Source of the DNA: a virus | Taxonomy: Duplodnaviria > Heunggongvirae > Uroviricota > Caudoviricetes | DNA length: 13,740 nt | Virus record (IMG/VR): IMGVR_UViG_2695420746_000009 | Span: 1-13,740 of that record | Reading direction: 5' to 3' (one strand) | Shown here: positions 1-13,740 of the stretch, piece by piece | Numbering within the stretch: position 1 is the first letter of the stretch | How the letters are laid out: each line of letters opens with the position of its first letter | Position numbers and translations under genes: made by a program | Notes under the pieces: generated by a model | What the model was told of the DNA's origin: nothing | What the model saw: the letters and a program-made list of their open reading frames with translations, nothing else | Databases searched by the model: none

Positions 1-84
1 ATCACGGTAATGATTAACAGCCCATGACAGGCAGACGATGATGCAGATAATCAGAGCGGAGATAATCGCGGTTAACCTGCTCAT
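1..84 (-). CDS. Rz: i-spanin Rz, N-terminal 28 codons only (gene runs off the window start)
   Basis: Reverse strand from 84 reads [28 protein letters not shown], near-identical to my recollection of the lambda Rz N-terminus (single TM anchor). Its ATG overlaps the endolysin stop (ATGA). Confidence 0.85.
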
Positions 85-581
85 TGCTGCCCCCACAAAC
101 AGACTTCACGCTCAATATCACGACGGGTCATCAGCCCTTTCCATTGCTTACCGCCAGCGTATGTCCAGCGACGTAGCTGGTCACATGCGCCTTTGATATA
201 GCCCTGGTTTATTTTGCGAAGAAGCGTCGATGTTCTGAAATTGCCAGCACCCACGTTGTAGACGAACGAGTAAAGAGCGCCGCGCGTTGTTTCCGGTATA
301 TCGACTTTGATGTACGGGTTAATTTGTCTGGCGACCGTGGCAAGGTCTTTATTCAGGAGGGCTTTGCATTCTGCTTCGGTATACGTTTTACCTAGCATGA
401 TGTCTTTTCCAGTGTGTCCGTAACATACAGTCCATACGCCAACAATATCTTTGTATGGTATGTAACTGACACCTTCCAGACCATCGTTACCACTTGGGCC
501 AGTGATGAGCATAGACGCTATGGCAATAGCCCCGCCACCAATAGCAGCTGTGACAGCTTTGCGTAATGATGACTGCATCAT
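81..581 (-). CDS. SAR endolysin (phage lysozyme, GH24, P21 R-like)
   Basis: 166 aa. N-terminal Gly/Ala-rich weakly hydrophobic segment [20 protein letters not shown] typical of a signal-anchor-release domain, followed by a T4-lysozyme-like catalytic region ([24 protein letters not shown]). Near-identical to my recollection of P21 R. Tandem ATG ATG start overlaps the holin stop. Confidence 0.9.
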
Positions 582-850
582 ATTTCCTTCGGTGCTCTCT
601 TCCCCAGCTCTCCAATAACCATCGCTGTAGCAGAAAGATTATTGGTATTAGTTTTATCCAATATGTCCTGCAATATCTTCGTGCGCTTCATCTGCTCGCG
701 TTTATTGAGCCGGTATGTAAGCACACCGAGGATAATGCTGAACGCGACACCGATAATGAAGCCCCAATCCTGCAATGACAGGCTGGCAAAGAACGCAGCA
801 AGACCAGCGCTACCATAAGATGCACTGCTGTATCGTTCATCCATCTTCAT
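578..850 (-). CDS. class II holin / pinholin with dual-start motif (holin and antiholin)
   Basis: 90 aa with two hydrophobic segments ([11 protein letters not shown] and [18 protein letters not shown]) and a charged C-terminus. Starts Met-Lys-Met (ATG AAG ATG), the classic dual-start arrangement. SD GAGGT lies 7 nt upstream. Sits immediately upstream of, and overlapping, the SAR endolysin. Confidence 0.75.
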
Positions 851-945
851 ATCTCTTACCTCGCAATAGTTGCTGAGGTTTCGGCTTGGAAACTATATGG
901 CGAAAATAACCCCTACCAAAAACGGCAGGGGAATATATTCTCCAG

Positions 946-2022
946 TTACTCAAATAACTTTTTCACTTCATCAACTGTCTGAAGATAACGTTCGCTCTCA
1001 ATCTCAATACCTATTGCCTGACGTCCTAACTTCAGCGCAGCTTTAATAGTTGAGCCTGATCCCATAAAGAAATCGGCAACGATATCTCCGGGGCGTGAAC
1101 TACTCTTTATAATATGTTCCATCATCGCTGCAGGTTTTTCACATGGGTGCTTGCCAGGATAATATTGCACAGGAGGAAACTCCCATACATCGGTATAAGG
1201 TACATCAGCAGTAACATGAAATGGACGGCGTAAATTTTCATACTGAGTCTTCAAATCATCATACTGCTTCTTTACTTCCTCATAATGCAATTTCAGATCG
1301 CTATAACGCTTTTCATGTTCTGAATAATCAACATTAAAAGGATATGGACACGGGACACCGAGTGAATCTGCCTTCCTGCGAAATAATTCGCATAGTTTAT
1401 TAAAATCAATTAATGATGGAAGCCGCCACTGCGAATAAGAAAACCAGTGTGAACACATCTGCTTTCCTGTCGCTGAATTAATGTCTGCGGCTGATATATC
1501 TAACTGACGGCGAGCCAGCGAAAAAGCATCAATTAGTGGAGAAAATATATTTTTTCTTAAATCTGCACATTTTGAAGCATAACCTGACTGACCTTTAGCA
1601 TAACCTGACGCGCCGTAATGCTCTGCAAATAATATTCTTTCAGTAGCAGGAAAATAAGCCCTTAAACTTTCTTTATGACAACCGCGCCACATACCACTGG
1701 GTTTAGCCCAAATGATATGGTTCAGAACATTGAAACGGTCGCGAGTTAATAATTCAATTTTTGACGCAAGGCGAGAGCCGGTAAACATATACAGGCTGCC
1801 ATTAGGGGCCAATATCCGCCAAAATTCTGCCAAAAATTCGTCAATCCACCCCAAAAAGTCAGCATCGCTATCCCACTGGTTATCCCATGCGTTAGCCTTT
1901 ACGCCGAAGTATGGTGGGTCTGTTGCAATCAAATTGACCGAGTTATCAGGGATGGTTTTGATAAATTGCAGAGAATCTGCGCAAACGAGTTGTGCGCCAT
2001 GAATATTAGTGGTTTTGAACAT
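946..2022 (-). CDS. DNA N6-adenine methyltransferase, beta class (orphan, phage late-region moron)
   Basis: Motif IV DPPY near the N-terminus (LIATDPPYFG) and motif I FxGxG near the C-terminus (DFFMGSGST), i.e. the beta-class order. A coiled-coil-like insert (KRYSDLKLHYEEVKKQYDDLKTQYENLRR) lies in the presumed target-recognition region. Start chosen at the ATG giving MFKTTNIHG; the ORF track extends to 2067. Neither start has a clear SD. Confidence 0.85.
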   Translation of the reverse strand: MFKTTNIHGAQLVCADSLQFIKTIPDNSVNLIATDPPYFGVKANAWDNQWDSDADFLGWIDEFLAEFWRILAPNGSLYMFTGSRLASKIELLTRDRFNVLNHIIWAKPSGMWRGCHKESLRAYFPATERILFAEHYGASGYAKGQSGYASKCADLRKNIFSPLIDAFSLARRQLDISAADINSATGKQMCSHWFSYSQWRLPSLIDFNKLCELFRRKADSLGVPCPYPFNVDYSEHEKRYSDLKLHYEEVKKQYDDLKTQYENLRRPFHVTADVPYTDVWEFPPVQYYPGKHPCEKPAAMMEHIIKSSSRPGDIVADFFMGSGSTIKAALKLGRQAIGIEIESERYLQTVDEVKKLFE

Positions 2023-2157
2023 AGCTATTATTTTTTTGCCTGGGTAAGCTAACCCAGCGATGCGCATCGCGGGTGGGCTTTAGGTTCAGCCTATAGCTCT
2101 GGCATGGGTTGACCGCAGGACAAGCTGCAACTTGTCCTGCGCCCACTTTTCAGGCAC

Positions 2158-2179
2158 AAAAAAACCGCCATAAAGGCGG
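2158..2179 (-). terminator. Intrinsic terminator for leftward transcription (GC hairpin plus U7)
   Basis: Plus strand CCGCC-ATAAA-GGCGG (2165-2179) preceded by a run of 7 A (2158-2164). On the minus strand this is a 5-bp all-GC stem followed by UUUUUUU. Confidence 0.6.
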
Positions 2180-2218
2180 CTTGTTGGCTATTGGGTACAA
2201 AAAACCCAACTTAACAAA

Positions 2219-2247
2219 ACAATAACTAAAAACCGTCATTTTGCCAA
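2219..2247 (-). promoter_or_regulatory. Candidate sigma70 promoter firing leftward into the terminator and late genes (pR'-like by position)
   Basis: Minus-strand TTGGCA (rc of 2242-2247), 17-nt spacer, TATTGT (rc of 2219-2224). The terminator lies about 30-55 nt downstream. No other promoter-like sequence is visible before the methyltransferase start. Confidence 0.35.
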
Positions 2248-2264
2248 GCTTTTTCGTTTTTGTG

Positions 2265-2286
2265 CTGTGCGACCATGGTCGCACAG
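2265..2286. repeat. Perfect 22-bp palindrome CTGTGCGACCATGGTCGCACAG; copy 1 of dispersed TGCGACC-NN-GGTCGCA motif (candidate centromere-like site)
   Basis: Read directly. Intergenic, about 20 bp upstream of the candidate late promoter -35. Same core as the copies at 6573-6590 and 9017-9034. Confidence 0.5.
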
Positions 2287-2289
2287 TTT

Positions 2290-2517
2290 TTAGAAAGTTG
2301 CCTGCTTATATTCATCGGTCAAAGAATATCGACCAGACCCACTACGCTTTGCAACCCCAAAACAGATCATCTGTTCGATGATAAATTCAACGGCAGCCTG
2401 ACTCAAAAAACAGGCTTCGCTTAACTCTTTCAAGGAAATGCGTGGATATCCACGCATAACACATTCCACACTCAGGGCCGCTTCGGTCATATTTCCACGA
2501 ATTTCATTAATATTCAT
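2290..2517 (-). CDS. Hypothetical small protein with probable winged-helix/HTH segment
   Basis: 75 aa. SD GAGAGG 4-5 nt upstream of the ATG. Helix-turn-helix-like stretch ISLKELSEACFLSQAAVEFIIEQM followed by a Gly-rich wing-like segment. Second gene of a two-gene minus-strand operon, ending at the terminator. Confidence 0.55.
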   Translation of the reverse strand: MNINEIRGNMTEAALSVECVMRGYPRISLKELSEACFLSQAAVEFIIEQMICFGVAKRSGSGRYSLTDEYKQATF

Positions 2518-2530
2518 AACGCCTCTCTAA

Positions 2531-2752
2531 TCAATCTTGAAACTGGAAATCAACATCAGCCATAAAGCGGTTCAACTCAGCCAGTTTTGGCCCCATAGTC
2601 CCAATTAAGCGGCCAGCCAGTCGGTCTGTCAGGTTGGTACTGTTGAAACCATATTCCTTTTCGAAACGTTCAACCTTCTGCCACAACTCATACAATTCGT
2701 TAGCTATCTCCGCAACGTCGCCGCGCATTTTTTCGTTACCTTGATAATTCAT
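2531..2752 (-). CDS. Hypothetical small acidic protein
   Basis: 73 aa from the internal ATG (MNYQGNEK...), which has SD GAGGA 4 nt upstream. The ORF-track start at 2770 has no usable SD. Gap of 13 nt to the downstream HTH gene. Confidence 0.5.
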   Translation of the reverse strand: MNYQGNEKMRGDVAEIANELYELWQKVERFEKEYGFNSTNLTDRLAGRLIGTMGPKLAELNRFMADVDFQFQD

Positions 2753-2839
2753 AATATCCTCGAAATTCATATAGTTAGTGGGTTATCCCCCTCAACAACA
2801 CGAACTGTAACTCTGCCAAAAGAACACATCCAGTGTTAT

Positions 2840-2857
2840 TTTCACTTTTTAGTGAAA
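2840..2857. promoter_or_regulatory. Inverted repeat TTTCAC-N6-GTGAAA in the divergent promoter region (candidate operator for TA autoregulation)
   Basis: Read directly, about 60 bp upstream of the toxin start, between two divergent transcription units. Confidence 0.4.
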
Positions 2858-2915
2858 TTTTATATTTGCTTTGTTTTCTCGTTTTGGTGTATTTTGCGCG
2901 TTAGGAGGCTATAAT

Positions 2916-3227
2916 ATGTTTAACGTGATAACCCACCCTGCAGCACTGGATGAACTGCTTGAACTACCAGACGATCTGCGAGGTCGCATGACCAGGCTAA
3001 TTGAACGACTGGAGAAAGAGGGAAACAAACTTAAGATGCCCCATAGCCGTGTAATAGGCGGAGGACTCTTTGAACTAAGAGTAGGGGATAAAAACATCGC
3101 AAGAACGCTATACGCCTACGCGACTGGTAACGAAATTTATCTATTGCATGCATTTGTAAAAAAGACACAGAAAACACCAGTAAAGGCTATAGAAATCGCC
3201 AGAACTCGCCTGAAGGAGATGAACTGA
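2916..3227 (+). CDS. Type II toxin, RelE/ParE superfamily, HigB/Gp49-like (addiction module killer protein)
   Basis: 103 aa from the ATG with SD AGGAGG 7 nt upstream. Family-typical motifs LFELR, LLHAF and KKTQKTP. Stop overlaps the start of the downstream HTH gene by 1 nt. The ORF-track start at 2871 is over-extended. Confidence 0.8.
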   Translation: MFNVITHPAALDELLELPDDLRGRMTRLIERLEKEGNKLKMPHSRVIGGGLFELRVGDKNIARTLYAYATGNEIYLLHAFVKKTQKTPVKAIEIARTRLKEMN

Positions 3228-3514
3228 TGAAAGCAAAAGGCATCCCGTTTAACGAAGTAAAGGAAAAACTACTCAACACTCCAGAAGCTATCAAAGGATA
3301 TGAAGAGGCCGATAAAGAACTGGAGATGGTCGAAATGTTATACGAAATGAGGGAAAGAGCAGGTTTAACGAAGTCAGCTCTGGCAGAACGAATGGGATTG
3401 CGCCCGTCCGCCATCAGCCGCCTGGAAAGCAATCCTTTAGGGGCAAGCATGAAAACTTTATCAAAATATGCCCAAGCATGTGGCGCAACAATTAATATTA
3501 ATGCCGTCTATTGA
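3227..3514 (+). CDS. HTH (XRE-family) antitoxin, HigA-like antidote protein
   Basis: 95 aa. Classic HTH LTKSALAERMGLRPSAISRLE. Translationally coupled to the upstream toxin in toxin-first (HigBA-type) order. Confidence 0.8.
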   Translation: MKAKGIPFNEVKEKLLNTPEAIKGYEEADKELEMVEMLYEMRERAGLTKSALAERMGLRPSAISRLESNPLGASMKTLSKYAQACGATININAVY

Positions 3515-3531
3515 TTAATCACTTTTCACTA

Positions 3532-3551
3532 CCCCGTCCAGAAGGGCGGGG
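3532..3551. terminator. Hairpin between convergent genes (possible bidirectional terminator)
   Basis: CCCCGTCC-AGAA-GGGCGGGG, an 8-bp stem with one G-U pair. Lies between the antitoxin stop (3514) and the stop of the convergent ORF (3558). Flanking U-tracts are poor. Confidence 0.4.
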
Positions 3552-3557
3552 TGTGTA

Positions 3558-3776
3558 TCAATGATGTAAACACTCCACAGCAATCGCTTGTTGGCAATTC
3601 TGAGCAATCTCCCGCGACATACTAACAAGCCGTGAAATCTCGCCAAGATGCAAGCTAGCTTCGGGAGAAGCCAGAGCAACGCTAACCAGATCCAAAACGG
3701 CGTCGATGTCTTTTAGGTTTGATCCGAGTTCTTCAAGAGTTGATACAGATGCTTCAGTCATTGAATCTAATACCAT
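3558..3776 (-). CDS. Hypothetical small acidic protein; candidate LexA-regulated gene
   Basis: 72 aa, rich in D/E. No recognisable SD in front of the ATG. A consensus-like LexA box lies 23 nt upstream. Coding status uncertain. Confidence 0.4.
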   Translation of the reverse strand: MVLDSMTEASVSTLEELGSNLKDIDAVLDLVSVALASPEASLHLGEISRLVSMSREIAQNCQQAIAVECLHH

Positions 3777-3798
3777 TTAATTAAAAAAGGTTATTTGA

Positions 3799-3818
3799 TA
3801 CTGTATAAAATTACAGGG
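3799..3818. promoter_or_regulatory. Candidate LexA (SOS) box
   Basis: TACTGTATAAAATTACAGGG: CTGT-N8-ACAG with an AT-rich spacer, 16 of 20 matches to TACTGTATATATATACAGTA. Overlaps a possible -10 (TACAGT on the minus strand) for the 3558-3776 ORF. It is the only CTGT-N8-ACAG found in the intergenic regions inspected. Confidence 0.55.
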
Positions 3819-4017
3819 TAAAACTCAAATTTTATAGCCAACTTTCAATGGATTAACAGGGTTAATAGCTTTGTAGTCCGATACTTATGTTCTCTTCCTA
3901 CGCCTCACTCAACCACCTACAGAAGCCCATCATCACCATAAGAAAAACTCTTTTCGCTTCGTTTTCTCATCATTTCAAAAACTATGCCTTTTTGTTTATT
4001 TATCATTCCGTGACCAG

Positions 4018-4344
4018 TCACACTTTGAGCACAAGTTTCAGCCTCGTAGTTGTAAGGTGACATGAGCCTTCACCATCAAAAATACATTCTGAAACAGGCA
4101 TTTTCTGACCACATCGCGGGCAAGTAGTAGATAGCTGCTTCTGCAGCTCCTTATAGTTTTTCCTGATCAGCAGACCGATGACTTCATTCTCTGAATATGG
4201 AACTCGTCCCGGTCTACGCAATACACAAATTTCCCCCAACATACGTAGCTCGTCAGGTTCCAGAATCCAGTCCCGTCTTGATGTGCCTTCCTTCTTCAAC
4301 CGTTCCCTGCGTCTCCTTTGCCGTTCTGCAGCTGTCAGCGCCAT
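4018..4344 (-). CDS. Hypothetical protein with arginine-rich N-terminus and C-terminal Cys cluster
   Basis: 108 aa. SD AGGAGG 4 nt upstream. N-terminus AERQRRRRERLKK; Cys cluster CPRCG...C...C. Last gene of the minus-strand operon. Confidence 0.6.
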   Translation of the reverse strand: MALTAAERQRRRRERLKKEGTSRRDWILEPDELRMLGEICVLRRPGRVPYSENEVIGLLIRKNYKELQKQLSTTCPRCGQKMPVSECIFDGEGSCHLTTTRLKLVLKV

Positions 4345-4359
4345 AAATCCTCCTGAAAA

Positions 4360-5034
4360 TTACTTAACCCAATTAACTACACCGCCAGCGGCCACAACCG
4401 CTTTTTCACAGTCACGCTCATATCTCAAAGGTTGAAATACACCATCAATAAAATATTTATCTCCACCACATGCTGCAGGAAGTGAAACAGAAAACTGAAT
4501 ATGACCATCCGGAGTTACCGGAGAGTTGCCAGCCTCATACGCTACCCTTATCCAGTGCATAAGCATTTCTGTACTTACACATCCACAATCAACATCAATT
4601 TTGTCATGCTGCTGTTCCAGCCATTGCTCAAAAGTTAACTTGTAAGTTTGGCTTATAGGTTTGGCTTCCAGTTCTGCTATGTGATTTTTGGCTGATTCCA
4701 ACTCAATCGACAATTTTTCCAACTGCTCTTTATGCTTCTTGTATTCCTGATATGCGTGCCAAGACTGACCTTTGCGCACACTATCCGTGATATCAGTAAT
4801 CTGTTCTGGTGTTAGCGTGGTCAGTGGCTGTGCTGGGAAAATCAGCACTTTCCCGGAATCCCAATCAAAACCAGCGTGAATTGACTGAACCTCAACTGAA
4901 GGTGTTGAACCAATGCTGCCAGGCGAATGAACAACGATCGTTACATCCATATCGCGACGATCGCTGTGGTTGTTGGACAAAATACGATTCAACAAAATAC
5001 GATTCACCAACTCAGAAAATTTAGAAAATTTCAT
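4360..5034 (-). CDS. Hypothetical protein with central coiled-coil
   Basis: 224 aa. ATG overlaps the upstream gene stop (ATGA). Coiled-coil-like region KKHKEQLEKLSIELESAKNHIAELEAK. Contains an in-frame 15-bp tandem duplication near the 5' end. Confidence 0.65.
   Translation of the reverse strand: MKFSKFSELVNRILLNRILSNNHSDRRDMDVTIVVHSPGSIGSTPSVEVQSIHAGFDWDSGKVLIFPAQPLTTLTPEQITDITDSVRKGQSWHAYQEYKKHKEQLEKLSIELESAKNHIAELEAKPISQTYKLTFEQWLEQQHDKIDVDCGCVSTEMLMHWIRVAYEAGNSPVTPDGHIQFSVSLPAACGGDKYFIDGVFQPLRYERDCEKAVVAAGGVVNWVK
4977..5006. repeat. Perfect tandem duplication of 15 bp (ACAAAATACGATTCA x2), in frame inside CDS 4360-5034
   Basis: Read directly. Encodes the repeated NRIL(L/S) unit in the N-terminus. 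Confidence 0.8.
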
Positions 5035-5321
5035 GCTGATTCACCTTTCTCTGCTCTCTCCTGTCGGAACATCACTATCATCAGGTCGCCTTTTGTCGCT
5101 ATCTTGGCTGTTGTGCCTGGCTCAATGCGGCTAAGTTCAAATGCGTCATAGAACGCCTCCAACGCTTTCTGGCGTTTTTCCTGTTTGCGGCGCTTTCCCC
5201 ACTGCTTTAGAAAAACAGAGGCCGCCCACTTCCCCGCACTGAACATGATGTAAAACCAACCGAGAAGTGCCAGACCGGTATTTAGGGCCGTATCGATCGT
5301 TATCGTGGTGTCGATATTCAC
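5031..5321 (-). CDS. Small membrane protein (one predicted TM segment), GTG start
   Basis: 96 aa from GTG at 5321, which is preceded by SD AGGAGG at 7-nt spacing and overlaps the upstream stop (TAGTG). TM-like segment GLALLGWFYIMFSAGKWAASVFL followed by a basic stretch. The ORF-track start at 5399 would overlap the upstream gene by 79 nt. Confidence 0.55.
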   Translation of the reverse strand: MNIDTTITIDTALNTGLALLGWFYIMFSAGKWAASVFLKQWGKRRKQEKRQKALEAFYDAFELSRIEPGTTAKIATKGDLMIVMFRQERAEKGESA

Positions 5322-5740
5322 TACGCCACCTCCTGAAAATTTCCCTGATAAAACGCCAACACACGCTGCATAACTTCGCTCTTCCGACAATCGTGACAAA
5401 TCATGTTCAAGCGCCTGTCGTAACGACGTATTTCTCCATCAGGTAATGACCAGATAAGGTCAGGATCAACAACTACCGATTTCTTCGGCTTTACTCTTGA
5501 TAGCTTTTTGCGGGCGTTTTGCCAGTCCTTGCGCGCTTGTGCAGACAGAAATATCCCGGAGCCAGAGATATACAAATCACCACTGGTGGCAAGCTCTCTG
5601 GATAAACGATTAACAGCACATCGGCTAATACTAATTTCATCTGCCAGTTGCCTAACCGTTCCTCGCCCATTCAGGCGCACGAGTTCCACAATTTGTTTCT
5701 TCAGTTCTTCACGCTGTTCTGGTGTAAAAACTTTTGCCAT
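5321..5740 (-). CDS. HTH-containing DNA-binding protein, function unknown
   Basis: 139 aa. SD GGAGA 6 nt upstream. ATG overlaps the exonuclease stop (TAATG). HTH-like stretch VRQLADEISISRCAVNRLSREL. Confidence 0.7.
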   Translation of the reverse strand: MAKVFTPEQREELKKQIVELVRLNGRGTVRQLADEISISRCAVNRLSRELATSGDLYISGSGIFLSAQARKDWQNARKKLSRVKPKKSVVVDPDLIWSLPDGEIRRYDRRLNMICHDCRKSEVMQRVLAFYQGNFQEVA

Positions 5741-6339
5741 TACGATTCTCCTTTCCCTTTTATGAGACGGGAGAAAATTGCGGATACATACTTAGCCTGA
5801 TGAATAGCATCAGCTAGGGCATGGTGTCGTTCGCCATCAAATGGCATATCTTTTTTAGAATTGAAACCAATAAACTGACCAAGATTAACGATTGTTCGAA
5901 CATCCTGATCATTAAAATATTCCCACGGACAGGCTAAGCCAACGCGCTCATAAGCACCGCGTAAAATTACATTGTCGAATGTTGCTCCATTTCCCCATAC
6001 TTTCAATTTTTTTAAATTACATGCATGGCAAGTAATAAAGTGTGATAATTCAAAAAGTGCATCCTTAATATCAAGGGCATCATTAGTACAAATTGCGGCT
6101 CTGGCTTCCTTGCTCTGTTTCAACCACCATAAAATGGTATCACCATCGGCGACACCACCATTCAACATCGAGCTTCTGAGATTCACTGGCACATAAAAAG
6201 TAGGACCTAATTCCTCACTTTCTGGAGAAAAAAACACTGCCCCGATAGAAACAATTGGAGCACATGTGTTAGTACCCATTGTTTCAAGGTCAATCATTAC
6301 ATCAGACCGTTTCCTGTCGTAAATAATCTGATTAGTCAC
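5740..6339 (-). CDS. DEDDh-family 3'-5' exonuclease (DnaQ-like fold)
   Basis: 199 aa. Exo I motif MIDLETMG (D-x-E), Exo II GNGATFDNVIL, Exo III HHALADAIHQAKY (H-x4-D with Tyr). GTG start with SD GAGGAG 8 nt upstream. Confidence 0.75.
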   Translation of the reverse strand: MTNQIIYDRKRSDVMIDLETMGTNTCAPIVSIGAVFFSPESEELGPTFYVPVNLRSSMLNGGVADGDTILWWLKQSKEARAAICTNDALDIKDALFELSHFITCHACNLKKLKVWGNGATFDNVILRGAYERVGLACPWEYFNDQDVRTIVNLGQFIGFNSKKDMPFDGERHHALADAIHQAKYVSAIFSRLIKGKGES

Positions 6340-6362
6340 GAATAATTCTCCTCAACGTTTAT

Positions 6363-6566
6363 CTATACCCAAATTTTCTGTTGATATGTTCTGGATGGTT
6401 TTGGCGTTCTTTCTGATTCAGGTAAATGAACATAAACGCAATATCCATCACCTAAAAAATCAGAACGAACAACCAGAACTTTCTTACCACGCCGCCGATA
6501 AGTATCTGAAAGACGCTCTGCTTCATCATGCGTCATCGGCCCCTGCTTAAATGGCGTTATTTTCAT
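6363..6566 (-). CDS. Hypothetical small basic protein
   Basis: 67 aa from the ATG (MKITPFKQ...). The 18-bp palindrome lies 6 nt upstream of the start; no clear SD. The ORF-track start at 6590 is a GTG inside the palindrome. Confidence 0.5.
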   Translation of the reverse strand: MKITPFKQGPMTHDEAERLSDTYRRRGKKVLVVRSDFLGDGYCVYVHLPESERTPKPSRTYQQKIWV

Positions 6567-6867
6567 TTTCTTGTGCGACCGCGGTCGCACCCTCGCTGAT
6601 TTCCAAGTAACGCTTAATCCAAAGATTTTCTATATGCTTATTACCTGGCTGATTTGATAAATACCAATCGGCAATTACAGACTGCTTATTACTATCTGGT
6701 CGTGTCCTGTAACCACAAGTTGGACACCAGATAACATATTCATTTCTTACCCCCGAATACCTTAATTCTGGCTTCGACGGTTTCCTGAACATAACTTGTT
6801 TACAAAGGCAGAATGGCACTTCCTGCCCGATGGCGTTTGATGATTTCACTGCGCTTCTCCGCCGCAT
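6547..6867 (-). CDS. Hypothetical protein with Cys pairs (CxC ... CPxCG), possible zinc ribbon
   Basis: 106 aa as given in the ORF track; start uncertain (no SD at either candidate ATG, and it overlaps the upstream gene by 68 nt if full length). Cys pattern CLC ... CPTCG. Confidence 0.4.
   Translation of the reverse strand: MRRRSAVKSSNAIGQEVPFCLCKQVMFRKPSKPELRYSGVRNEYVIWCPTCGYRTRPDSNKQSVIADWYLSNQPGNKHIENLWIKRYLEISEGATAVAQENENNAI
6573..6590. repeat. Perfect 18-bp palindrome GTGCGACCGCGGTCGCAC; copy 2 of TGCGACC-NN-GGTCGCA motif
   Basis: Read directly. Lies within the 3' end of ORF 6547-6867 (encoding ATAVAQ) and immediately upstream of the start of the 6363-6566 gene. Confidence 0.5.
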
Positions 6868-7510
6868 TTAATAATGCGGTTCGATTTAAGCTCAGACATC
6901 GCGACTTAATTAAAAGCCAGCGTTCTTTATAATCTTGTCTCCAGCTATCAATAGATATATTCAGTAGAAAACTCAGATGCCTGTCCTGTTCTCTCTCATC
7001 AACTGCCTCAGCACACGTAAGTTCTGATTTAACCTGCTGTGCCGCGTAATAAATCAATTTCCGCATGGCTTTTTTCGTGGAGGCCTTCATTTTTTTAAAG
7101 CCGCCCCCAGAATGAGCAACCAGAAAATCAAGCCATAACCACTGACAAACAATCACATCATTGTTGTAGTCAGGCTTGCATCCGTAGCAATAATAAAGCC
7201 AGGCTGATTCCTCGTTATTCAACTGACCAATAGCCCTGCGCCAGCTGGCGCTCTGAAAATCAATATCAGTGAGCAACATTGATGATTGTTTAAATGTTTT
7301 CCCTTGGTGGAATCTAACCGACTCAGCGGGAACGGACACTTCGTATGAGTTATCATCCCCCACACTGATTGACCGGACTGGTTTATTGTTAAACCGTCCT
7401 GATCTACCGAGACGCATCTGCTCAAGCTGGACCTCCAGAATGCCACGCTGGCGATAATGAACATCAGCCAATGCCGTAGAGACGCAGCTGCGTATATACT
7501 CAAGCTCCAC
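6800..7510 (-). CDS. Hypothetical protein; positional candidate for a late-gene antiterminator (Q-like), unverified
   Basis: 236 aa. GTG start with SD AGGAGA at 9-nt spacing, overlapping the cro-like stop by 11 nt. First gene after the cro-like gene. I cannot confirm Q-family membership by eye. Confidence 0.55.
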   Translation of the reverse strand: MELEYIRSCVSTALADVHYRQRGILEVQLEQMRLGRSGRFNNKPVRSISVGDDNSYEVSVPAESVRFHQGKTFKQSSMLLTDIDFQSASWRRAIGQLNNEESAWLYYCYGCKPDYNNDVIVCQWLWLDFLVAHSGGGFKKMKASTKKAMRKLIYYAAQQVKSELTCAEAVDEREQDRHLSFLLNISIDSWRQDYKERWLLIKSRCLSLNRTALLNAAEKRSEIIKRHRAGSAILPL

Positions 7511-7721
7511 GCTTACGACTCTCCTTAATCGACTGCTTTACCCGCCGAGTTGTAAAGTCACTCTTCAGCTTGTAAGCAGTACGAACTTCAATATCGCTTT
7601 GCCGCAATGAAGGAATCTCTCCAGCGGTTAACCATTGGTAAACAGCTCCGGGTGTTACACCTACCCCTGCCGCTGCTTTTTCAACACTGCCAAAGTGGCG
7701 AATAAGTTCTTCTGGTTTCAT
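7500..7721 (-). CDS. Cro-like HTH regulator
   Basis: 73 aa from the ATG giving MKPEELIRHF. HTH VGVTPGAVYQWLTAGEIP resembles the lambda Cro GVYQSAINKAI region. Divergent from the CI-like gene across an operator-bearing intergenic region. TATAAT lies 7 nt upstream of the ATG, so the mRNA may be leaderless. Confidence 0.7.
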   Translation of the reverse strand: MKPEELIRHFGSVEKAAAGVGVTPGAVYQWLTAGEIPSLRQSDIEVRTAYKLKSDFTTRRVKQSIKESRKRGA

Positions 7722-7749
7722 GTTGTTATTATAAACAATAAATAACAAT

Positions 7750-7789
7750 TAAAGCCAGCTATAATAAATAAATTTTATAGCCAGCTATA
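7750..7789. promoter_or_regulatory. Two operator-like 14-bp sites (TAAAGCCAGCTATA and TATAGCCAGCTATA) between the divergent cro-like and cI-like genes
   Basis: The 12-mer AGCCAGCTATAA occurs twice, 26 bp apart. The second site is a near-perfect dyad (TATAGC-CA-GCTATA). The location is the expected OR-like switch region. Confidence 0.5.
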
Positions 7790-7812
7790 AGAAGATCATT
7801 TATGATTACAGT

Positions 7813-8409
7813 ATGAAAACACGAGGCGAACGACTGAAAGCACGCCGTTTAGAGATGAAGCTGACGTTGCGAGAAGTTGCTGAGGCTGTCGATATCTCTA
7901 TAGCAGGCGTCCAAAACTTAGAACGTGGCGACGTAATGCCGTCACTGGAGATAGGTATTGCCCTGGCTAAGTGCTTACGCAAGCCAGTGCATTGGGTGCT
8001 ATATGGGACAGAATATGACCCTGATCGCATTCCTGTTATTGGCACAACTGAAAGTGGGCCTGATGAAGAGTGGAAGCCGGGACAGGTTCCAAATACTGAG
8101 CGATTCCTGCCATTCATCAGCCAGCGCAATACTGTGTATGCGTTAACTATCAGCAATCTTACGCAGGGAAACTATCAGCCAGGCGATTTTCTCCTGGTCG
8201 ATTCTGCGCTGGAACTGGTCCCCGGCGAGGATGTTCTGGTTCGTGATACTGCAGGAAATATCACTATCCAGCGCCTAGCCCGTTTTGATGATGAAAATTA
8301 CTATCTGGATGGAACAAACTCACAACGCGCCATCTTCAGGAAAAGCGATCTTGAATTTGTTCACCAAATAGTCGGAACGATCAAATCATTCATGGTTGAG
8401 GGTAGATGA
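7813..8409 (+). CDS. CI-like prophage repressor (N-terminal XRE HTH, C-terminal CI/LexA-like domain)
   Basis: 198 aa. HTH LTLREVAEAVDISIAGVQNLERG. C-terminal region resembles lambda CI around PGDF (QPGDFLLVDS ... VGTIKS). I could not locate a canonical G-D-S-M catalytic Ser context by eye, so autocleavage competence is uncertain. Confidence 0.8.
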   Translation: MKTRGERLKARRLEMKLTLREVAEAVDISIAGVQNLERGDVMPSLEIGIALAKCLRKPVHWVLYGTEYDPDRIPVIGTTESGPDEEWKPGQVPNTERFLPFISQRNTVYALTISNLTQGNYQPGDFLLVDSALELVPGEDVLVRDTAGNITIQRLARFDDENYYLDGTNSQRAIFRKSDLEFVHQIVGTIKSFMVEGR

Positions 8410-8510
8410 CTTAATACGGGGTTTATTGTTTGCTGTAAATCTGGTTTAATGCAGGGCATATGTTCTGTGGGTTGACTCAGGTTACAGCAGCAGAAAAAAG
8501 ACGAAAAAAA

Positions 8511-8539
8511 ACCCGAGTCGGCAAACTCGGGTCCTTTTC
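8511..8539. terminator. Bidirectional intrinsic terminator between the cI-like and repA-like genes
   Basis: ACCCGAGT-CGGCAA-ACTCGGGT, an 8-bp stem. The plus-strand U-tract is weak (CCUUUUC); the minus-strand U-tract is strong (UUUUUUUUCGUCUUUUUUC). Confidence 0.5.
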
Positions 8540-8654
8540 AGGAAGCAGCCACAGTAACGCGACGGATTCCGTCAATTCAAGATGCGTTTATTGTGGCTGC
8601 TCCTGCGGATTTTTTCAACCCGAAAAAACATAATTCGCATGGAATGGCTAAAAA

Positions 8655-11600
8655 ATGACATTAAACGATTTCTATGCGGATCGCTTTGGCAGCGATCCGT
8701 TCTCGCTAATTGAAGCAGCACGGGATGAACTAACCGAGCTGGCACAGATGGCTGGTATCAACTGGCCTGCCTGTTCCGACAACATCCAACTCAACCCTCG
8801 CGGGGGAGTTGAGCGTTACTCTTCATACAATAAAACATCTCCAGAAGCTCTCGAAAAGAGCCTGAAAGGACGCGTAGAAATTTACTCCCGGCTGGAACAC
8901 AGCAAAGGGATTGATTACCCGTTCATTAACTTCGTCCATAAAGGCAGCGATGCTGGCTCATGGAGCGGTTTCTCCTTCCTGTTTTCTGAATATCGCCGTG
9001 AGCAACAACGGAATAATGCGACCGTGGTCGCACAACCGGAAGAAGAACGGGAAAGAATAGAACGTCAGGCCGAAGCACGTCGTCGCCGTGAAGAACAAAA
9101 ACGAATTAATGACCTGAAAAACAACCAAATGGACCATGAACGTTTGCTGGGATGGCTGGCATTCCACAGCGCGTGGGAACATGCTCCGGCTGAAGACGGC
9201 TCATGGCCATATGCGATTAAAAAAGGTATTCGTGACGTTTTTAGTTCATGTGATGTGCGTCGCGTGACCAGTCACGACAGTGCGAAATGGAGCCGGGGGC
9301 CAACCACATATATGGCTATCCCTCTGGCTCACCTGGACGGTCGTTACGATGGTCGTATTGTGGGTTGGCAGCGAATCGACAAACAAGGTGGGAAATACCA
9401 GACCAGCGCAGTAACCAGCGGCGATTTCGTCGGTGCCTGCTTTGTTATCGGTGAGCTGAAAGGGGCGCAAAACATCGCTGTTACAGAAGGTTTTGCTACT
9501 GGTGCATCCATCTGGCTTGCCACGAAAAAAGATAAACGCTTTGACGCTGTGGTTGTCGCTGTATCCGCTAACAACATGGTTCATGTTGTGGAACAACTGG
9601 TAAACATGTACCCAGCGGCAAAAATCACCTGCGCACTGGATAATGACCGGAAATCTGCCACAGAAGGAAAAGGGAATACCGGCCTGCGGACTGGCTATGA
9701 AATCTTATCGAAATTCAACGATGTCCGCTGCGTCTATCCAACTTTTGAAGACGATCCGCAAATGGAGTGCAGTGACTTCAACGACCTGCACAAACTACGT
9801 GGACTTCGTGAAACCGCACGTCAACTATTTACAACAGCAAACCGCCTGAAAACCGGTACTGATTTGCTATCTCTGACGCTCAACCGCCTGAAGACAATTA
9901 AGCGGGATAACCGTCGTACTTTTGCCAAAGAGCTGCTGAGAGCGGTGGATATTGGCATGCTAACCTGTCCAGTTCCTAACAGTCCGTCAGATTTATTTAA
10001 CATGTTCTGCATCGTTCTGCGTGAAATGGGACTGGAAAATATCTATCGCGCTACGGTAAAAGACCACATTGCCCGTCGCCTGAATAAAAAGTGCCGTATT
10101 GCCCAGGCTCCGCGCTCTTTCAGCGAACGCATAACTGATCCCAATAAACGCCCTCAACATATCACCTATAAGCGTTTTGAAACTTCGGTAATGACCGATG
10201 ATGTCCTGAAGTACGTGCAATCACTACAAGGGATAGTCATCGTCCGTGCTGGTATGGGTTCCGGCAAATCTACAGGATTGTTACGACCATTAATGCATAG
10301 CTCAGAACGTGGTATCTCTGTTGCTCACCGTGTCTCCCTTATTGGTGGCCTGTGGGAAATGATGACAGAAGGAAAAGGTGTAAAAGCCGATATCCTGCAC
10401 TATCAGGACCCTGGCTATCAGGAAATGGCTCCATACGCCAGTAAACTGACCATCTGCATAAACTCGATTGTCAAAAACTGCTGGCAACCGTTGATGCGCC
10501 AGCACGACTATTTTGGCTTTGACGAGGCCACACAAGGGCTACGTGCCGTTCTTTCCGGTCGGGCTATGGAAAACCCGGTGGCTGTATTCAATACGCTAAT
10601 TGACGCGCTGGCCAGAACGGAACAACACCCAATCATGGTGGATGCTGATGCGAACGATCTGCTGGTTGACCTAGCTGAACTGGCTATGAAACGCCGTGAA
10701 GAACTAGGTTTACCGGCATGGCTGCAGATCCACGTAATTGAATTACCTGTTGATGTTCGCAACCGCGAAACAGGTGAGCCAATCCGGGTTTTTTATACAG
10801 AAAAAGATCGCATCATGACCGAGGTGGTGAAAGCTGTATCGGATGGCGAAAAAATCATGTTGGCCACCGACAGCTCCACCTTTGCAGAAGATGTGACAGC
10901 CACCCTGAGAATGCATTTTCCTGGTAAGAAATTTCTGTGTGTAAACCAGAAAAACAAACCAGAGCCAGAAGTTGAAGCATTTACCAATCAACCGAAAAAG
11001 ATGGTCAAAAAATACGACGGCCTGATTTATAGCCCGTCTATTTCATCCGGCGTGTCGATTGAGCAAAAACATTTTGACCGTCATTTCGGCATGTTCTGTG
11101 GTGAAGTTGTACCCAGCGACGCAGTGCAAATGCTACGCCGCGACCGTACAGCAAAAGAATTTATTATCGGCTTTGATAAAGCTCGTGCAAAACGTGAAAC
11201 TGACCCGCAAAAAATAGAACGAGCATTCGCCCAGGCATTGCTTGCTACCGCAGGTATGAACGGTGAACTGACGGATGTTGTTTTCGATGGCGACCGTATA
11301 TCAATGGGGGTGGCCAATACCGACTTTACCAGGATGAAAATTAAAGCAGCCGCAATTGAAGCGACTGCGCGTAACGACTACGCCAGCAACATGATCTGCA
11401 TCATGCACAGCGACGGTTATAAGGTATCGCCGCTGGCCACCGATTATGCTGCGAATGATATCGGTAAAGATCTGCGTAAAGAAGCGCGGGATATTGTGTG
11501 GGAACAGACACTGGATCTGCACCTCAATACAGAAACTCCACAAGAATCAGAGCGTGAAGAACTGCTAAAAAAACGCGCGCTGACGCTTGAAGAACAGGCA

Positions 11601-12698
11601 AAACTTGTCCGCTGGGATATTGAAAACGAACTGAAACTACCGGTTGAAGAAGGCACGCTGAAATTCTATTTCGATGGTGCTCGAGACAAAGTTCGCCGCT
11701 ATGAAACAATGCTTTTAGATGAGGTAACAGCTCGTCGTTACGACCGGGAAGAAGCAGCCATCAATTTTACCTACGCATACCGTCAGGCGGGACAGTGGCA
11801 ATATTTTGTAGTGACCGCGATGACTCGCGAGCAGGCTGATGATGTCTTTAAAACTAAATTCCCTGGAATAATCGATCACAAGGTAAAAGCTACTCCTACT
11901 GTTGAAGTCGGGGCGCGCGGTTTCTATGCGCTTAAATCAGCAACTCTCCGGCAGTACTTTATCGACTGCGGTATCAACCCTGAGACTATGACCGGCGAGG
12001 CGACTCAGGAGCGTCTCAAATTTGCTCGAGATAACCTCATGACAGCCGAACGCCGTGACCTGTTGAATAACGTTCTGCACATTGGTGGTTTTATGACGCC
12101 AAAAGGGAAGCCTAAAGTGCCGGAAGCGTTGTTTAAAAACATTTGCGACTCTCTTGGCCTTAAAACAGGTAAACGTCGCGGCAGAGACGGCGATAAGCGT
12201 CCAACCTTGCGTTTTGTTGAGCCTGAATCAGCGGCATTTATGCTGGATATTCTTGCTCAGCGTCAGAAAGATGGCCTAACCCTGAAAACGCGTAAAGCCG
12301 AGAAGACCGCCATCGAAATGGATCGCGATTTGGATCTCAATATATATATGGATGATAAAACGCGATCCACAAACGAGCAGGTTCAAAACGCCCCTCATTC
12401 AGTAATTTCTGAGGCTTTGGCTGTGTTGCCAGTGGTTGTACCTGAGTCCTGGGCGATGAGTGCGCTTTCCGGTGAGGAGCTGGCCACTATGTCATCATGG
12501 TCATCAGCCAGCATAGCTATGACGTTTGCATCTCTGTACCTCACAGAGTTCATGGATCACTTATCCAGCAATGAACTGCGGCGGTTACGTGAATACATTA
12601 CCGGGAATAGCTGGATTTGCCCCTATATTTCCAGACATCTGTTATCACTTAACCCATTACAAGCCCGCTGCCGCAGATATTCCCGTGGCGAGCGATAA
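8655..12698 (+). CDS. Large multidomain replication initiator (primase-helicase, N15 RepA-like); 3' end disrupted by IS2
   Basis: 1347 codons as an ORF. Toprim-like motifs ([12 protein letters not shown] and CALDNDR) around aa 280-330, Walker A GMGSGKST around aa 535, Walker B-like FGFDEAT, then a roughly 700-aa C-terminal region. Native sequence ends at 12611 (1319 codons); codons 1320-1347 are read from the IS2 terminal inverted repeat. Weak SD. Confidence 0.8.
9017..9034. repeat. Palindrome TGCGACC-GT-GGTCGCA; copy 3 of the motif, inside the repA-like coding sequence
   Basis: Read directly. Encodes ATVVAQ in a charged linker ([21 protein letters not shown]), in the same codon phase as copy 2 (ATAVAQ). 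Confidence 0.5.
12320..12368. other. Candidate origin-like element inside the 3' part of the repA-like gene
   Basis: 8-bp inverted repeats GGATCGCG / CGCGATCC flank ATTTGGATCTCAATATATATATGGATGATAAAA, which includes an (AT)5 run and three GATC sites within 49 bp. Confidence 0.3.
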
Positions 12699-13528: not shown

Positions 13529-13740
13529 TTTTTTGCCCGTCCATATTCAACGGCTTCTTTGAGGAGTTCATTTTCCATCGTTTTCTTGCCGAGCAGGCGC
13601 TGGAGTTCTTTAATCTGCTTCATGGCGGCAGCAAGTTCAGAGGCAGGAACAACCTGTTCTCCGGCGGCGACAGCAGTAAGACTTCCTTCCTGGTATTGCT
13701 TACGCCAGAGAAATAACTGGCTGGCTGCTACACCATGTTG
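13486..13740 (-). CDS. insC: IS2 OrfA (InsC), C-terminal part (5' end beyond the window)
   Basis: Reverse strand reads ...[20 protein letters not shown] ... [24 protein letters not shown], then a stop. Overlaps the insD start region, which contains the slippery AAAAAAG. Confidence 0.85.

Follow-up and report, generated by a model that had tools for sequence, protein, structure and literature searches.

A Gp49-family toxin–antitoxin operon of an N15-like linear phage-plasmid and its candidate operator

What do two short, overlapping genes behind a small palindrome do for a phage that is inherited as a linear plasmid? The window analysed here, a stretch of 13,740 nucleotides, is an N15-like linear phage-plasmid (Ravinvirus). 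Positions 1–12612 are 99% identical to N15-like plasmids of E. coli and Shigella, which bears out the phage-plasmid host proposed in a preliminary description of the sequence. That description also proposed a HigB/Gp49-like toxin encoded ahead of a helix-turn-helix (HTH) antitoxin, an operator-like palindrome, and a role in post-segregational killing or abortive infection. The pair is a near-copy of N15 gp49/gp48, real but ordinary and already known, and the locus is the namesake of the Pfam Gp49 family, which was named after N15 gp49. Taken as a whole, it is very probably a type II toxin–antitoxin operon of the Tad-Ata/Gp49 family that stabilises the N15-like linear plasmid-prophage.

The two genes and their ribosome-binding sites are arranged as follows.

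2903–2908, plus strand: Shine-Dalgarno sequence of the toxin gene, AGGAGG, ending 7 nt before the ATG
2916–3227, plus strand: toxin gene, 103 aa, Gp49 family (Tad or 'HigB'-like, RelE superfamily), ortholog of N15 gp49
3214–3219, plus strand: Shine-Dalgarno sequence of the antitoxin gene, AAGGAG, within the 3' end of the toxin gene and ending 7 nt before the ATG at 3227
3227–3514, plus strand: antitoxin gene, 95 aa, XRE-HTH, ortholog of N15 gp48

The toxin start is a conserved ATG at 2916, versus the TTG at 2871 given in the mechanical list of open reading frames, and its stop is the TGA at 3225–3227. The GGAGG of its Shine-Dalgarno sequence is invariant in 33/33 N15-like sequences. The antitoxin gene runs from the ATG at 3227–3229 to a stop at 3512–3514. 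The toxin TGA and the antitoxin ATG share one base, forming the junction TGATG at 3227. The toxin-first order and the 1-nt overlap are thus as first described, and the order is the same in all relatives examined.

The toxin matches Pfam PF05973 (Gp49) along the entire profile (positions 1–90 of 90; 101.6 bits, cutoff 23.9; E 2.5e-29) and PHROG 2523 (E 2.6e-43), and it is 92% identical to N15 gp49. With Pfam matches accepted up to an E of 0.1, it gives Gp49 and a sub-threshold PilZNR match only, and no HigB-type profile. NCBIfam returns only a RelE/ParE model, sub-threshold at 15 bits versus 62.85, and the NCBI annotation of the protein already reads RelE/ParE family. Of the double label first given to the toxin, Gp49 holds. 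'HigB' appears to fit only in a loose sense, through the toxin-first order and the HTH antitoxin, as no other meaningful Pfam match was found.

A structural model bears on how the toxin may act. The AlphaFold2 model (pLDDT 86.6, pTM 0.79) has a RelE-like fold, in which the N-terminal helices pack against an antiparallel beta-sheet. Foldseek matches it with a probability of 1.00 to the mRNases HigB1, S. pneumoniae HigB, YoeB and RelE (TM 0.57–0.79). The top matches are M. tuberculosis HigB1 (7NBU, ribosome-bound; TM 0.79) and S. pneumoniae HigB (6AF4; TM 0.75). This fold is common to RelE and ParE, and the NCBI name says just 'RelE/ParE family', so a ParE-like gyrase poison has to be weighed against an mRNA endonuclease. 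Overexpression reportedly leads to cell elongation, which would also fit DNA damage. A gyrase poison is nonetheless very unlikely. ParE chains rank 32nd or lower in the Foldseek results, at TM 0.41–0.51, and the positions that match the S. pneumoniae HigB RNase active site and HigB1 K95 do not vary. Toxin residues E53, R55, F80 and K82, which align with E66, R68, F90 and K92 of S. pneumoniae HigB (by sequence alignment only; PMC7984235), are unchanged across 24 diverse homologs. K82 also aligns, again by sequence, with K95, the residue mutated in the HigB1 structures. For R73, the S. pneumoniae HigB residue with the largest mutational effect (PMC7984235), the alignment gives no clear equivalent in the toxin. 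An mRNA endonuclease is the reading we prefer.

The antitoxin has ~33 N-terminal residues followed by a C-terminal XRE helix-turn-helix (residues 36–89). It matches HTH_3 (47.7 bits, cutoff 23; E 1.6e-12; residues 38–88) and HTH_31 (35 bits, cutoff 27), the HTH matches spanning residues 36–88, in agreement with the antitoxin class originally assigned. The protein is 86% identical to N15 gp48 and matches S. pneumoniae HigA (6AF3_B) and M. tuberculosis HigA2 weakly, over its whole length.

Much about such pairs is already on record. The window's pair and N15 gp49-gp48 have the same gene order, overlap, neighbours and upstream palindrome, and differ in a few amino acids and in one promoter base, a G at 2889 where N15 has an A. 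In passages that refer to Dziewit 2007, N15 gp49-gp48 is cited as a validated Tad-Ata type II toxin–antitoxin system (PMC2701414, PMC2654960, PMC3581621, PMC5906591). The title of Dziewit et al. 2007 (J Bacteriol 189:1983), as listed in PMC2654960, names N15 among the encoders of a toxin–antitoxin stabilising system. In the N15 pair as described, the toxin comes first and the XRE-HTH antitoxin second (PMC2701414 section 8; PMC3581621). Stabilisation of a heterologous plasmid is reported explicitly, in the citing passage of PMC2654960, for the SXT pair of the same study. Growth inhibition and its neutralisation are known for homologs only, through literature cited in PMC2701414, PMC2654960 and PMC5906591.

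More distant systems share the design to varying degrees. The tad-ata pair of Paracoccus aminophilus pAMI2 and SXT s045-s044 also place a COG4679/DUF891 (Gp49) toxin before an XRE-HTH antitoxin (PMC2701414 section 8; PMC2654960), but their sequence relationship to the pair is distant and the likeness comes from literature description only. A Gp49-domain toxin of A. baumannii is only ~20% identical to Tad toxins (PMC5906591). M. tuberculosis HigB1 (Rv1955; 7AWK, 7NBU) is the closest solved fold (TM 0.79, 27% identity) and shares the motifs FELR and F-x-K-K-T-Q-K-T-P with the toxin; the M. tuberculosis higBA pair is said to resemble N15 gp49-gp48 (PMC3581621). However, its sequence similarity to the toxin is weak (phmmer E 0.035), and HigB1 is part of a toxin–antitoxin–chaperone system, whereas the module here has no SecB-like chaperone gene. 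S. pneumoniae HigBA (6AF3, 6AF4) combines a Gp49-like toxin carrying a C-terminal helix (TM 0.75) with a matching HTH antitoxin. In that system, promoter-region palindromes serve as binding sites for the HigA dimer and the HigBA heterotetramer, and the toxin is an RNase in vitro (PMC7984235). It differs in having four reported palindromes, against one clear one here, and identity is ~24%. Classical HigBA (Rts1/Proteus vulgaris) and V. cholerae HigB2-HigA2 likewise encode the toxin first, pair it with an HTH antitoxin and have a toxin of the RelE superfamily, but their toxins belong to other subfamilies and the toxin here matches Gp49 only. Against the toxin model, V. cholerae HigB2 (8A0X) reaches TM 0.53–0.58 and E. 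coli/Shigella HigB TM 0.54–0.60.

Regulation of the pair is likely to lie in the region upstream of the toxin, which holds two elements.

2840–2857, no strand assigned: candidate operator O1, the palindrome TTTCAC-TTTTTA-GTGAAA
2866–2895, plus strand: inferred toxin–antitoxin promoter, -35 TTGCTT (2866–2871) and -10 region TTGGTGTATTTT (2884–2895)

The inverted repeat TTTCAC-N6-GTGAAA was correctly placed in the promoter region. It is present at 2840–2857 as TTTCACTTTTTAGTGAAA, upstream of the inferred -35, and this is the single match within the window. It reads slightly better with 7-bp arms, TTTCACT-N4-AGTGAAA around TTTT, which puts the half-site centres 11 bp apart. Taken alone, O1 is not beyond chance: when the 145-bp intergenic region is shuffled with its dinucleotides preserved, 37% of the shuffles hold a perfect 6-bp inverted repeat (loop 0–12), and the background of such repeats in the window averages 0.93 per 145 bp. 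The significance of the palindrome therefore comes from comparison with relatives only, not from the statistics of a single sequence.

That comparison shows an element that is held in place and travels with the pair. In 33 distinct N15-like sequences the palindrome is nearly invariant and its flanks are more variable, and in nearly all close relatives it lies ~75–78 nt upstream of the toxin ATG. It is kept in N15, phiKO2 and YDC107_1, as well as in a diverged N15-like element with different flanks. It also accompanies the module between phage tail genes and on a Xenorhabdus chromosome (L016), where both arms are altered. In diverged relatives the two arms change jointly, for example to TTTCTC…GAGAAA or TTTATC…GATAAA. 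Double-change cells number 17, versus 5.2 for shuffled data, where none of 500 shuffles reaches that number, and are seen in 4/7 arm pairs. Paired cells in the arms make up 88.8%, versus 76.4% in shuffles and at most 47% in slid controls. The half-site sequence varies together with the recognition helix of the antitoxin among relatives; at the Buttiauxella locus (L017) no related palindrome was found and the recognition helix differs. Several near-identical relatives carry a mutation in one arm (TTTCGC, TTTCTC, TTTAAC, TTTATC, GTTAAA) with an unchanged antitoxin, and strict symmetry is therefore not required. O1 is likely the operator of an antitoxin dimer. This reading of the alignments is favoured because the position is conserved, the element is retained in unrelated contexts and the arm changes are compensatory. 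What the analysis adds, as an incremental gain, is this evidence from relatives that a symmetric element of 18 bp moves with the module while its arms covary.

A conserved RNA hairpin would show arm covariation too, and in the N15 GenBank record this sequence carries the label 'putative rho-indep. transcription terminator' (L002 2924–2944). Downstream of the stem, the plus strand carries a T-run. Even so, an RNA hairpin or intrinsic terminator with no protein-binding role is a highly improbable reading of the palindrome. Just 2 of the stem's base pairs are G-C, local folding yields -7 kcal/mol, and a terminator scan finds nothing at the palindrome. Since gp50 is divergent, no plus-strand gene ends upstream of the palindrome in N15-like elements. 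The palindrome lies upstream of the conserved promoter and hence outside the toxin–antitoxin mRNA, and its distance to the toxin ATG is fixed whatever lies upstream. With a weak stem, a negative scan, no co-directional gene upstream and a position ahead of the promoter, we rejected the terminator. Reading O1 as an operator corrects the label in the N15 record.

Could the palindrome instead serve its other neighbour? The gp50 start codon is at 2770 on the minus strand, divergent from the toxin across the 145-bp intergenic region. The palindrome sits in this shared region, 70–87 nt from the gp50 start, and conservation is high in the remainder as well, as at 2800–2815 and 2826–2833. Control of the divergent gp50-gp51 unit, instead of or besides the toxin–antitoxin operon, is nevertheless quite unlikely, given that the palindrome follows the pair into loci without gp50/gp51 (L013, L015, L016, L018) and that its half-sites change alongside the antitoxin recognition helix. 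In N15-like elements it might still control both units.

The promoter assigned to the pair is also supported by comparison. Conserved islands in the 33 N15-like sequences fall at 2866–2868 (TTG) and 2882–2894 (TTTTGGT.TATTT). Its counterparts are TTGTGT-17-TATATT in N15 and TTGCGT-17-TATATT in phiKO2, and in most relatives the -10 region reads TGgTATATT, an extended -10. The G at 2889 in the window's clade turns the hexamer into TGTATT, and from the sequence the -10 hexamer of this clade may have shifted to TATTTT at 2890–2895. A scan-called promoter lying over the palindrome, TTTTCA-16-TATATT (2839–2866), is doubtful, as it is not conserved in N15, phiKO2 or YDC107_1; N15 has no second promoter-like match over its palindrome. 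Inside the toxin gene, the promoter scan gave no match of at least 9/12. The best internal match, TGGAGA-16-TAAGAT at 3010–3037, is weak (8/12), and its N15 and phiKO2 counterparts are equally weak. Earlier work on Tad-Ata reportedly described a second, weaker promoter preceding the antitoxin gene.

O1 lies upstream of the conserved -35, not over the -35 or the -10, which is not the classic position for a repressor. Because O1 is directly upstream of the -35, antitoxin binding would repress the operon. In phiKO2, KpLi5, L064 and a Yersinia locus, a second partial palindrome is found 18 bp downstream, overlapping the -35. For the window we do not claim a second operator downstream of O1, where there is just a match with 2 mismatches at 2875–2892. 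In a speculative and improbable reading, the covarying pairs of palindrome and recognition helix across relatives would make a natural orthogonal set of repressors and operators acting from an UP-element position.

Together these features suggest how the operon may work. A single transcript from the promoter at ~2866–2895 would encode the 103-aa toxin first and then the 95-aa antitoxin. Translation of the antitoxin would be coupled to that of the toxin through the TGATG overlap, with help from its own AAGGAG ribosome-binding site. The RelE-fold toxin most likely stops growth through mRNA cleavage, probably on the ribosome. The N-terminal segment of the antitoxin is most likely the toxin-binding part, and its XRE-HTH most likely mediates dimerisation and binding to TTTCAC-N6-GTGAAA at 2840–2857. 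In a daughter cell without the plasmid-prophage, the labile antitoxin would decay and the toxin would halt growth, thereby stabilising the element. By analogy, the idea of post-segregational killing matches the literature on the 92%/86%-identical N15 pair.

The distribution of the module bears on whether it serves maintenance. It is present in 16/5,426 complete E. coli genomes and is plasmid-borne in every case. An antitoxin-based genome scan returned only three loci, all on N15-like contigs. At one of these, L009, the presumed upstream stretch failed to align with the others; L011 and L012, which end at a contig end, and L014, which has no called toxin, were uninformative for the upstream comparison. 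The neighbours are kept as in N15, with gp50/gp51 on one side and an antC-like ORF and gp46/gp47 on the other. N15-like phage-plasmids now circulating in E. coli and Shigella thus retain the gp49/gp48 addiction module, which helps to explain the stable inheritance of these low-copy linear plasmids.

The pair is also inserted as extra genes between tail genes of integrated and other phages, and on chromosomes. For integrated phages and chromosomes, segregational stabilisation would be pointless, and the module might chiefly protect the lysogen from phages (abortive infection) or act in competition among mobile elements, instead of maintaining a plasmid. Deletion of the related SXT pair s045/s044 did not destabilise SXT, as loss of the element was not raised (PMC2654960). 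Stabilisation of a heterologous plasmid therefore does not prove that such a pair maintains its native element. The toxin also partly matches the C-terminal domain of the PADLOC model NsnC (E 2.6e-07). This match covers just positions 229–282 of the 293-position model, however, the antitoxin matches generic HTH models only, and neither protein is covered in full by any PADLOC system model. There is no evident phage-sensing component, and the functional reports cited for the Gp49/Tad-Ata family concern plasmid stabilisation and toxicity only. We consider a mainly defensive role unlikely; the abortive-infection option raised at the outset finds no support here beyond the partial-domain match to NsnC. 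Plasmid maintenance remains the preferred reading.

Two further features lie downstream of the pair.

3527–3555, no strand assigned: G+C-rich hairpin separating the antitoxin gene from the LexA-controlled ORF
3558–3776, minus strand: LexA-boxed antC-like ORF, convergent with the antitoxin gene

The LexA box, CTGTATAAAATTACAG, is at 3801–3816, 25 nt upstream of the ORF, and the convergence noted in the preliminary description is confirmed. The antitoxin gene converges on this LexA-controlled antC-like antirepressor gene with only a hairpin devoid of a T-run between them, and for that reason the module might be wired into the prophage SOS switch instead of being a plain addiction cassette. We regard this as a long shot. 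If true, SOS-induced antC transcription could run antisense into the antitoxin mRNA and free the toxin at induction, and the freed toxin would shut down host translation or act as an abortive-infection trigger. The hairpin has no T-run on either strand, which is why the terminator scan makes no call there. Its RNA fold is stable (-23.2 kcal/mol, z -3.5), with 0/200 shuffles equally stable, and it is a probable transcript boundary.

The toxin and antitoxin genes are co-directional, both on the plus strand. The preliminary description had named a Gp49-signature toxin placed ahead of an XRE-HTH antitoxin with a 1-nt overlap, the inverted repeat TTTCAC-N6-GTGAAA and a convergent LexA-boxed ORF. 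Each of these is borne out by the following features.

2840-2857: palindrome TTTCACTTTTTAGTGAAA, 59-76 nt upstream of the toxin ATG
2903-2908, plus strand: AGGAGG, toxin ribosome-binding sequence
2916-3227, plus strand: toxin gene, 103 aa, Gp49 (PF05973)
3214-3219, plus strand: AAGGAG, antitoxin ribosome-binding site
3225-3227, plus strand: toxin stop codon TGA, sharing A 3227 with the antitoxin ATG
3227-3514, plus strand: antitoxin gene, 95 aa, XRE-type helix-turn-helix
3558-3776, minus strand: antC-like ORF, 72 aa, PHROG annotated as anti-repressor
3801-3816: LexA-type box CTGTATAAAATTACAG, perfect CTGT-N8-ACAG

A mechanical ORF list starts the toxin gene at TTG 2871. The conserved start is ATG 2916, which follows AGGAGG and upstream of which relatives diverge, which sets the toxin ORF at 2916-3227. 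Its product matches Pfam PF05973 'Gp49' from end to end (E 2.5e-29, 101.6 bits, cutoff 23.9). Antitoxin residues 36-89 form the helix-turn-helix (Pfam HTH_3, E 1.6e-12), and the N-terminal ~33 residues have no Pfam domain match.

The module is orthologous to a toxin–antitoxin system described in earlier literature as characterised by experiment. N15 gp49 gave the Pfam family Gp49 its name, and the Tad-Ata system was discovered on Paracoccus plasmid pAMI2 (PMC2701414 section 8). Work by Dziewit et al. on Tad-Ata-type pairs is cited in a passage of PMC2654960, and deletion of the SXT pair did not make SXT itself less stable (PMC2654960). The M. tuberculosis HigBA of a toxin–antitoxin–chaperone system has been likened to N15 gp49-gp48 (PMC3581621), and validated toxin-first modules with a Gp49 domain, as listed in PMC5906591, include Dziewit 2007. 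In RefSeq the two genes already appear as a 'type II toxin-antitoxin system RelE/ParE family toxin' and an HTH protein. The 2007 abstract of Dziewit reportedly describes two promoters, a bacteriostatic effect and cell elongation. The earlier finding was real and rightly interpreted, and the comparative case for the operator is all that we add to it.

By sequence identity and gene neighbours, the window is assigned to an N15-like linear plasmid-prophage, in keeping with the phage-plasmid setting first proposed. Positions 1-12612 are 99% identical to ~42-47 kb plasmids of Shigella sonnei and E. coli, which encode a RepA-type replication protein, Q, Cro and a prophage repressor. Escherichia phages YDC107_1 (genus Ravinvirus) and PhiR46_1 match positions 2700-3900 at 89% identity. 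Toxin identity is 100% to YDC107_1, 92% to N15 gp49 and 91% to phiKO2 Gp49; the antitoxin is 86% identical to N15 gp48. N15 has the same neighbours, with gp50 and gp51 divergent upstream and a small LexA-boxed ORF and gp46 convergent downstream.

The module occurs in 16 of 5,426 complete E. coli genomes, every copy plasmid-borne, and Gp49-family relatives are found in 3,829 of 72,556 plasmid records. Given these distributions and the published work on the Tad-Ata group, to which N15 gp49-gp48 belongs, the best-supported role for the module is post-segregational stabilisation of the plasmid-prophage. Occurrence of the gene pair at non-plasmid loci would also suit abortive infection or defence, but that role has no positive support, and PADLOC gave only a partial-domain match to NsnC. 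Most of the Gp49-matching plasmid records (3,487/3,829) fall below 60% identity, and thousands of plasmids carry a paralogous Gp49-family toxin of ~42% identity, chiefly conjugative Klebsiella plasmids. At a Photorhabdus locus (L019 701-1316) a second, divergent Gp49 and HTH pair lies directly upstream of the homologous pair.

An AlphaFold2 model of the toxin, built on 24 diverse homologs, was confident (mean pLDDT 86.6, pTM 0.79). Its predicted topology is a short strand, two helices, four strands and a C-terminal helix. The best solved match is M. tuberculosis HigB1, either bound to the ribosome with its mRNA target (7NBU, TM 0.79) or free (7AWK, TM 0.77), and S. pneumoniae HigB (6AF3/6AF4, TM ~0.75) is also among the best. 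YoeB and RelE come next (TM 0.57-0.62), and ParE toxins reach only 0.41-0.51. A phmmer alignment to 6AF3_A pairs E53, R55, F80 and K82 with E66, R68, F90 and K92 of S. pneumoniae HigB, in which mutation of R68 or F90 cut RNase activity markedly and that of K92 less (PMC7984235). R73, which had the largest mutational effect there (PMC7984235), lacks a clear partner in this toxin; the nearest candidate is the invariant R63. K82 lines up, in addition, with the alanine that replaces K95 in the HigB1 structures (K95A mutant). Residues E53, R55, R63, Y66, F80, K82 and K83 are invariant among homologs down to 46% identity. Because of the fold matches, the active-site alignment and these invariant residues, mRNA cleavage is the best inference for the mechanism, probably in association with the ribosome.

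Full-length antitoxin matches are weak: S. pneumoniae HigA (6AF3_B, query residues 9-90) and M. tuberculosis HigA2 (7EWC). The HTH domain taken alone is HipB-like. HigA partners of Gp49-like toxins are built like this antitoxin, with an N-terminal segment ahead of a dimeric HTH at the C-terminus, and in S. pneumoniae HigA as a dimer and HigBA as a heterotetramer both bind palindromes within their own promoter region (PMC7984235).

The palindrome, also readable with 7-bp arms TTTCACT/AGTGAAA, is not significant alone: when the 145-bp intergenic region is dinucleotide-shuffled, 37% of the shuffles have a perfect 6-bp inverted repeat whose loop is ≤12. Five lines of comparative sequence evidence alter this chance-level picture. 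Four conserved islands, separated by variable stretches, stand out across 33 distinct N15-like upstream sequences: 2836-2860 around the palindrome, 2800-2815 with 2826-2833, TTG 2866-2868, and 2882-2894. At L010, a distant N15-like locus (antitoxin 65% identity), the flanks have diverged and the palindrome is kept and improved to TTTTCACTT-TT-AAGTGAAAA. It accompanies the two genes to sites between phage tail genes (L013, ATTCAC-TTATAA-GTTAAT; L015, ATTCAC-TTTTAA-ATGAAT) and onto the chromosomes of Xenorhabdus (L016) and Yersinia (L018), usually 75-78 nt before the toxin ATG. The arms vary together, and in more distant subfamilies the toxin gene is preceded by palindromes of other sequence.

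TTTCTC…GAGAAA: arm variant, Xenorhabdus
TTTCTA…TAGAAA: arm variant, L065
TTTATC…GATAAA: arm variant, L069
TTTAG…CTAAA: arm variant, L073/L074
ATTCAC…GTGAAT: arm variant, L072
CATAAC-TTATTA-GTTATG: distant subfamily, L078-L085
ATAACAAATTTGTTAT: distant subfamily, Stx phage 75/02

In a 27-sequence alignment, symmetric positions were complementary in 88.8% of cases versus 76.4% in shuffles, and double-change cells numbered 17 versus 5.2 expected; none of 500 shuffles was as high for either. Compensatory changes fell in 4 of 7 pairs, and sliding one arm by 1-3 columns reduced pairing to ≤47%. Such covariation would also be compatible with a conserved RNA hairpin, and the N15 GenBank record (L002 2924-2944) labels the same palindrome 'putative rho-indep. 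transcription terminator'. However, the stem has two G-C pairs and reaches -7 kcal/mol with flanks, a terminator scan was negative at the palindrome, in N15-like elements no gene running in the same direction terminates ahead of it, and the promoter lies downstream. The label looks like a misannotation.

As for an operator, the half-sites have a centre-to-centre spacing of 11 bp, close to one turn of the helix, which fits a dimeric HTH protein. The antitoxin recognition helix is altered in most arm-variant loci (e.g. PSAISRLE, PSAITRLE, SQSGINSL, AQSALNRL, PSTITQLE). Single-arm mutants (TTTCGC, TTTCTC, TTTCCC, TTTAAC, TTTATC, GTTAAA) occur in elements with identical antitoxins. Among near-identical N15-like elements, such substitutions fall at 2843-2844 and 2854 (L021, L022, L027, L030, L038, L044, L076, L004, L048). 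Position 2844 shows three bases and a gap among the 33 sequences, with adjoining positions invariant. These substitutions could reflect repression tuning, a mutational hotspot or sequencing artefacts.

The group's conserved promoter pairs TTG(C/T)GT with an extended -10, TGgTATATT, across a spacer of 16-17 nt. The -35 begins 8 bp past the palindrome, which spans about -60 to -43 if transcription starts near 2900. This is roughly the UP-element position, not the polymerase core site, and repression could act via blocked alpha-subunit contacts or cooperation with weaker downstream sites. At L013, the same motif sits between a TTGATG -35 and a TAATAT -10, the classic operator position. A second partial palindrome, 18 bp downstream and overlapping the -35, is found in phiKO2, KpLi5, L064 and the Yersinia locus, which suggests a two-operator arrangement in some members; the window has no convincing second palindrome 18 bp downstream of 2840-2857. 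The second partial site reads TTCTC-TATTG(C/T)-GTGAA over the -35 in phiKO2, KpLi5 and L064 (L003/L004 ~1442-1460). Yersinia L018 1421-1456 carries two palindromes in tandem at an 18-bp spacing, ATTAACT-TAAT-AGTTAAT and TTCACT-ATTG-AGTTAA.

The window's clade (11 of the 33 N15-like sequences) has TGgTGTATT where others have TGgTATATT. Window position 2889 is G at the critical second base of the -10 hexamer, and the promoter in this clade may be weakened or shifted to TATTTT 2890-2895. In the gp50/gp49 intergenic region, ACGAACTGTAACTCTG (2800-2815) and ACATCCAG (2826-2833) are almost invariant in the 33 sequences, and their 'aactctg/agctctg' core is kept in the more distant relatives L064-L074. 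These are possibly the gp50 promoter or a site for another regulator.

The convergent ORF is 56% identical to an N15 ORF (L002 3688-3891, minus strand) that is absent from the N15 annotation and has its own LexA-type box at L002 3916. N15 encodes a LexA-controlled antirepressor, AntC (PMC4488713; PMC3121763), and ORF 3558-3776 is probably its SOS-controlled counterpart. Between the antitoxin and antC-like genes lies a stable G+C-rich hairpin (3527-3555, -23.2 kcal/mol). Neither of its strands has a T-run, so the convergent transcripts might overlap.

At the far end of the window, an IS2 copy (12613-13740; TnpB match, 727 bits) interrupts the repA-type replication gene at its 3' end, and similarity to all related plasmids ends at 12612. 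The repA ORF (1347 aa) extends to 12698, past this boundary, so its last ~28 codons are IS-derived.
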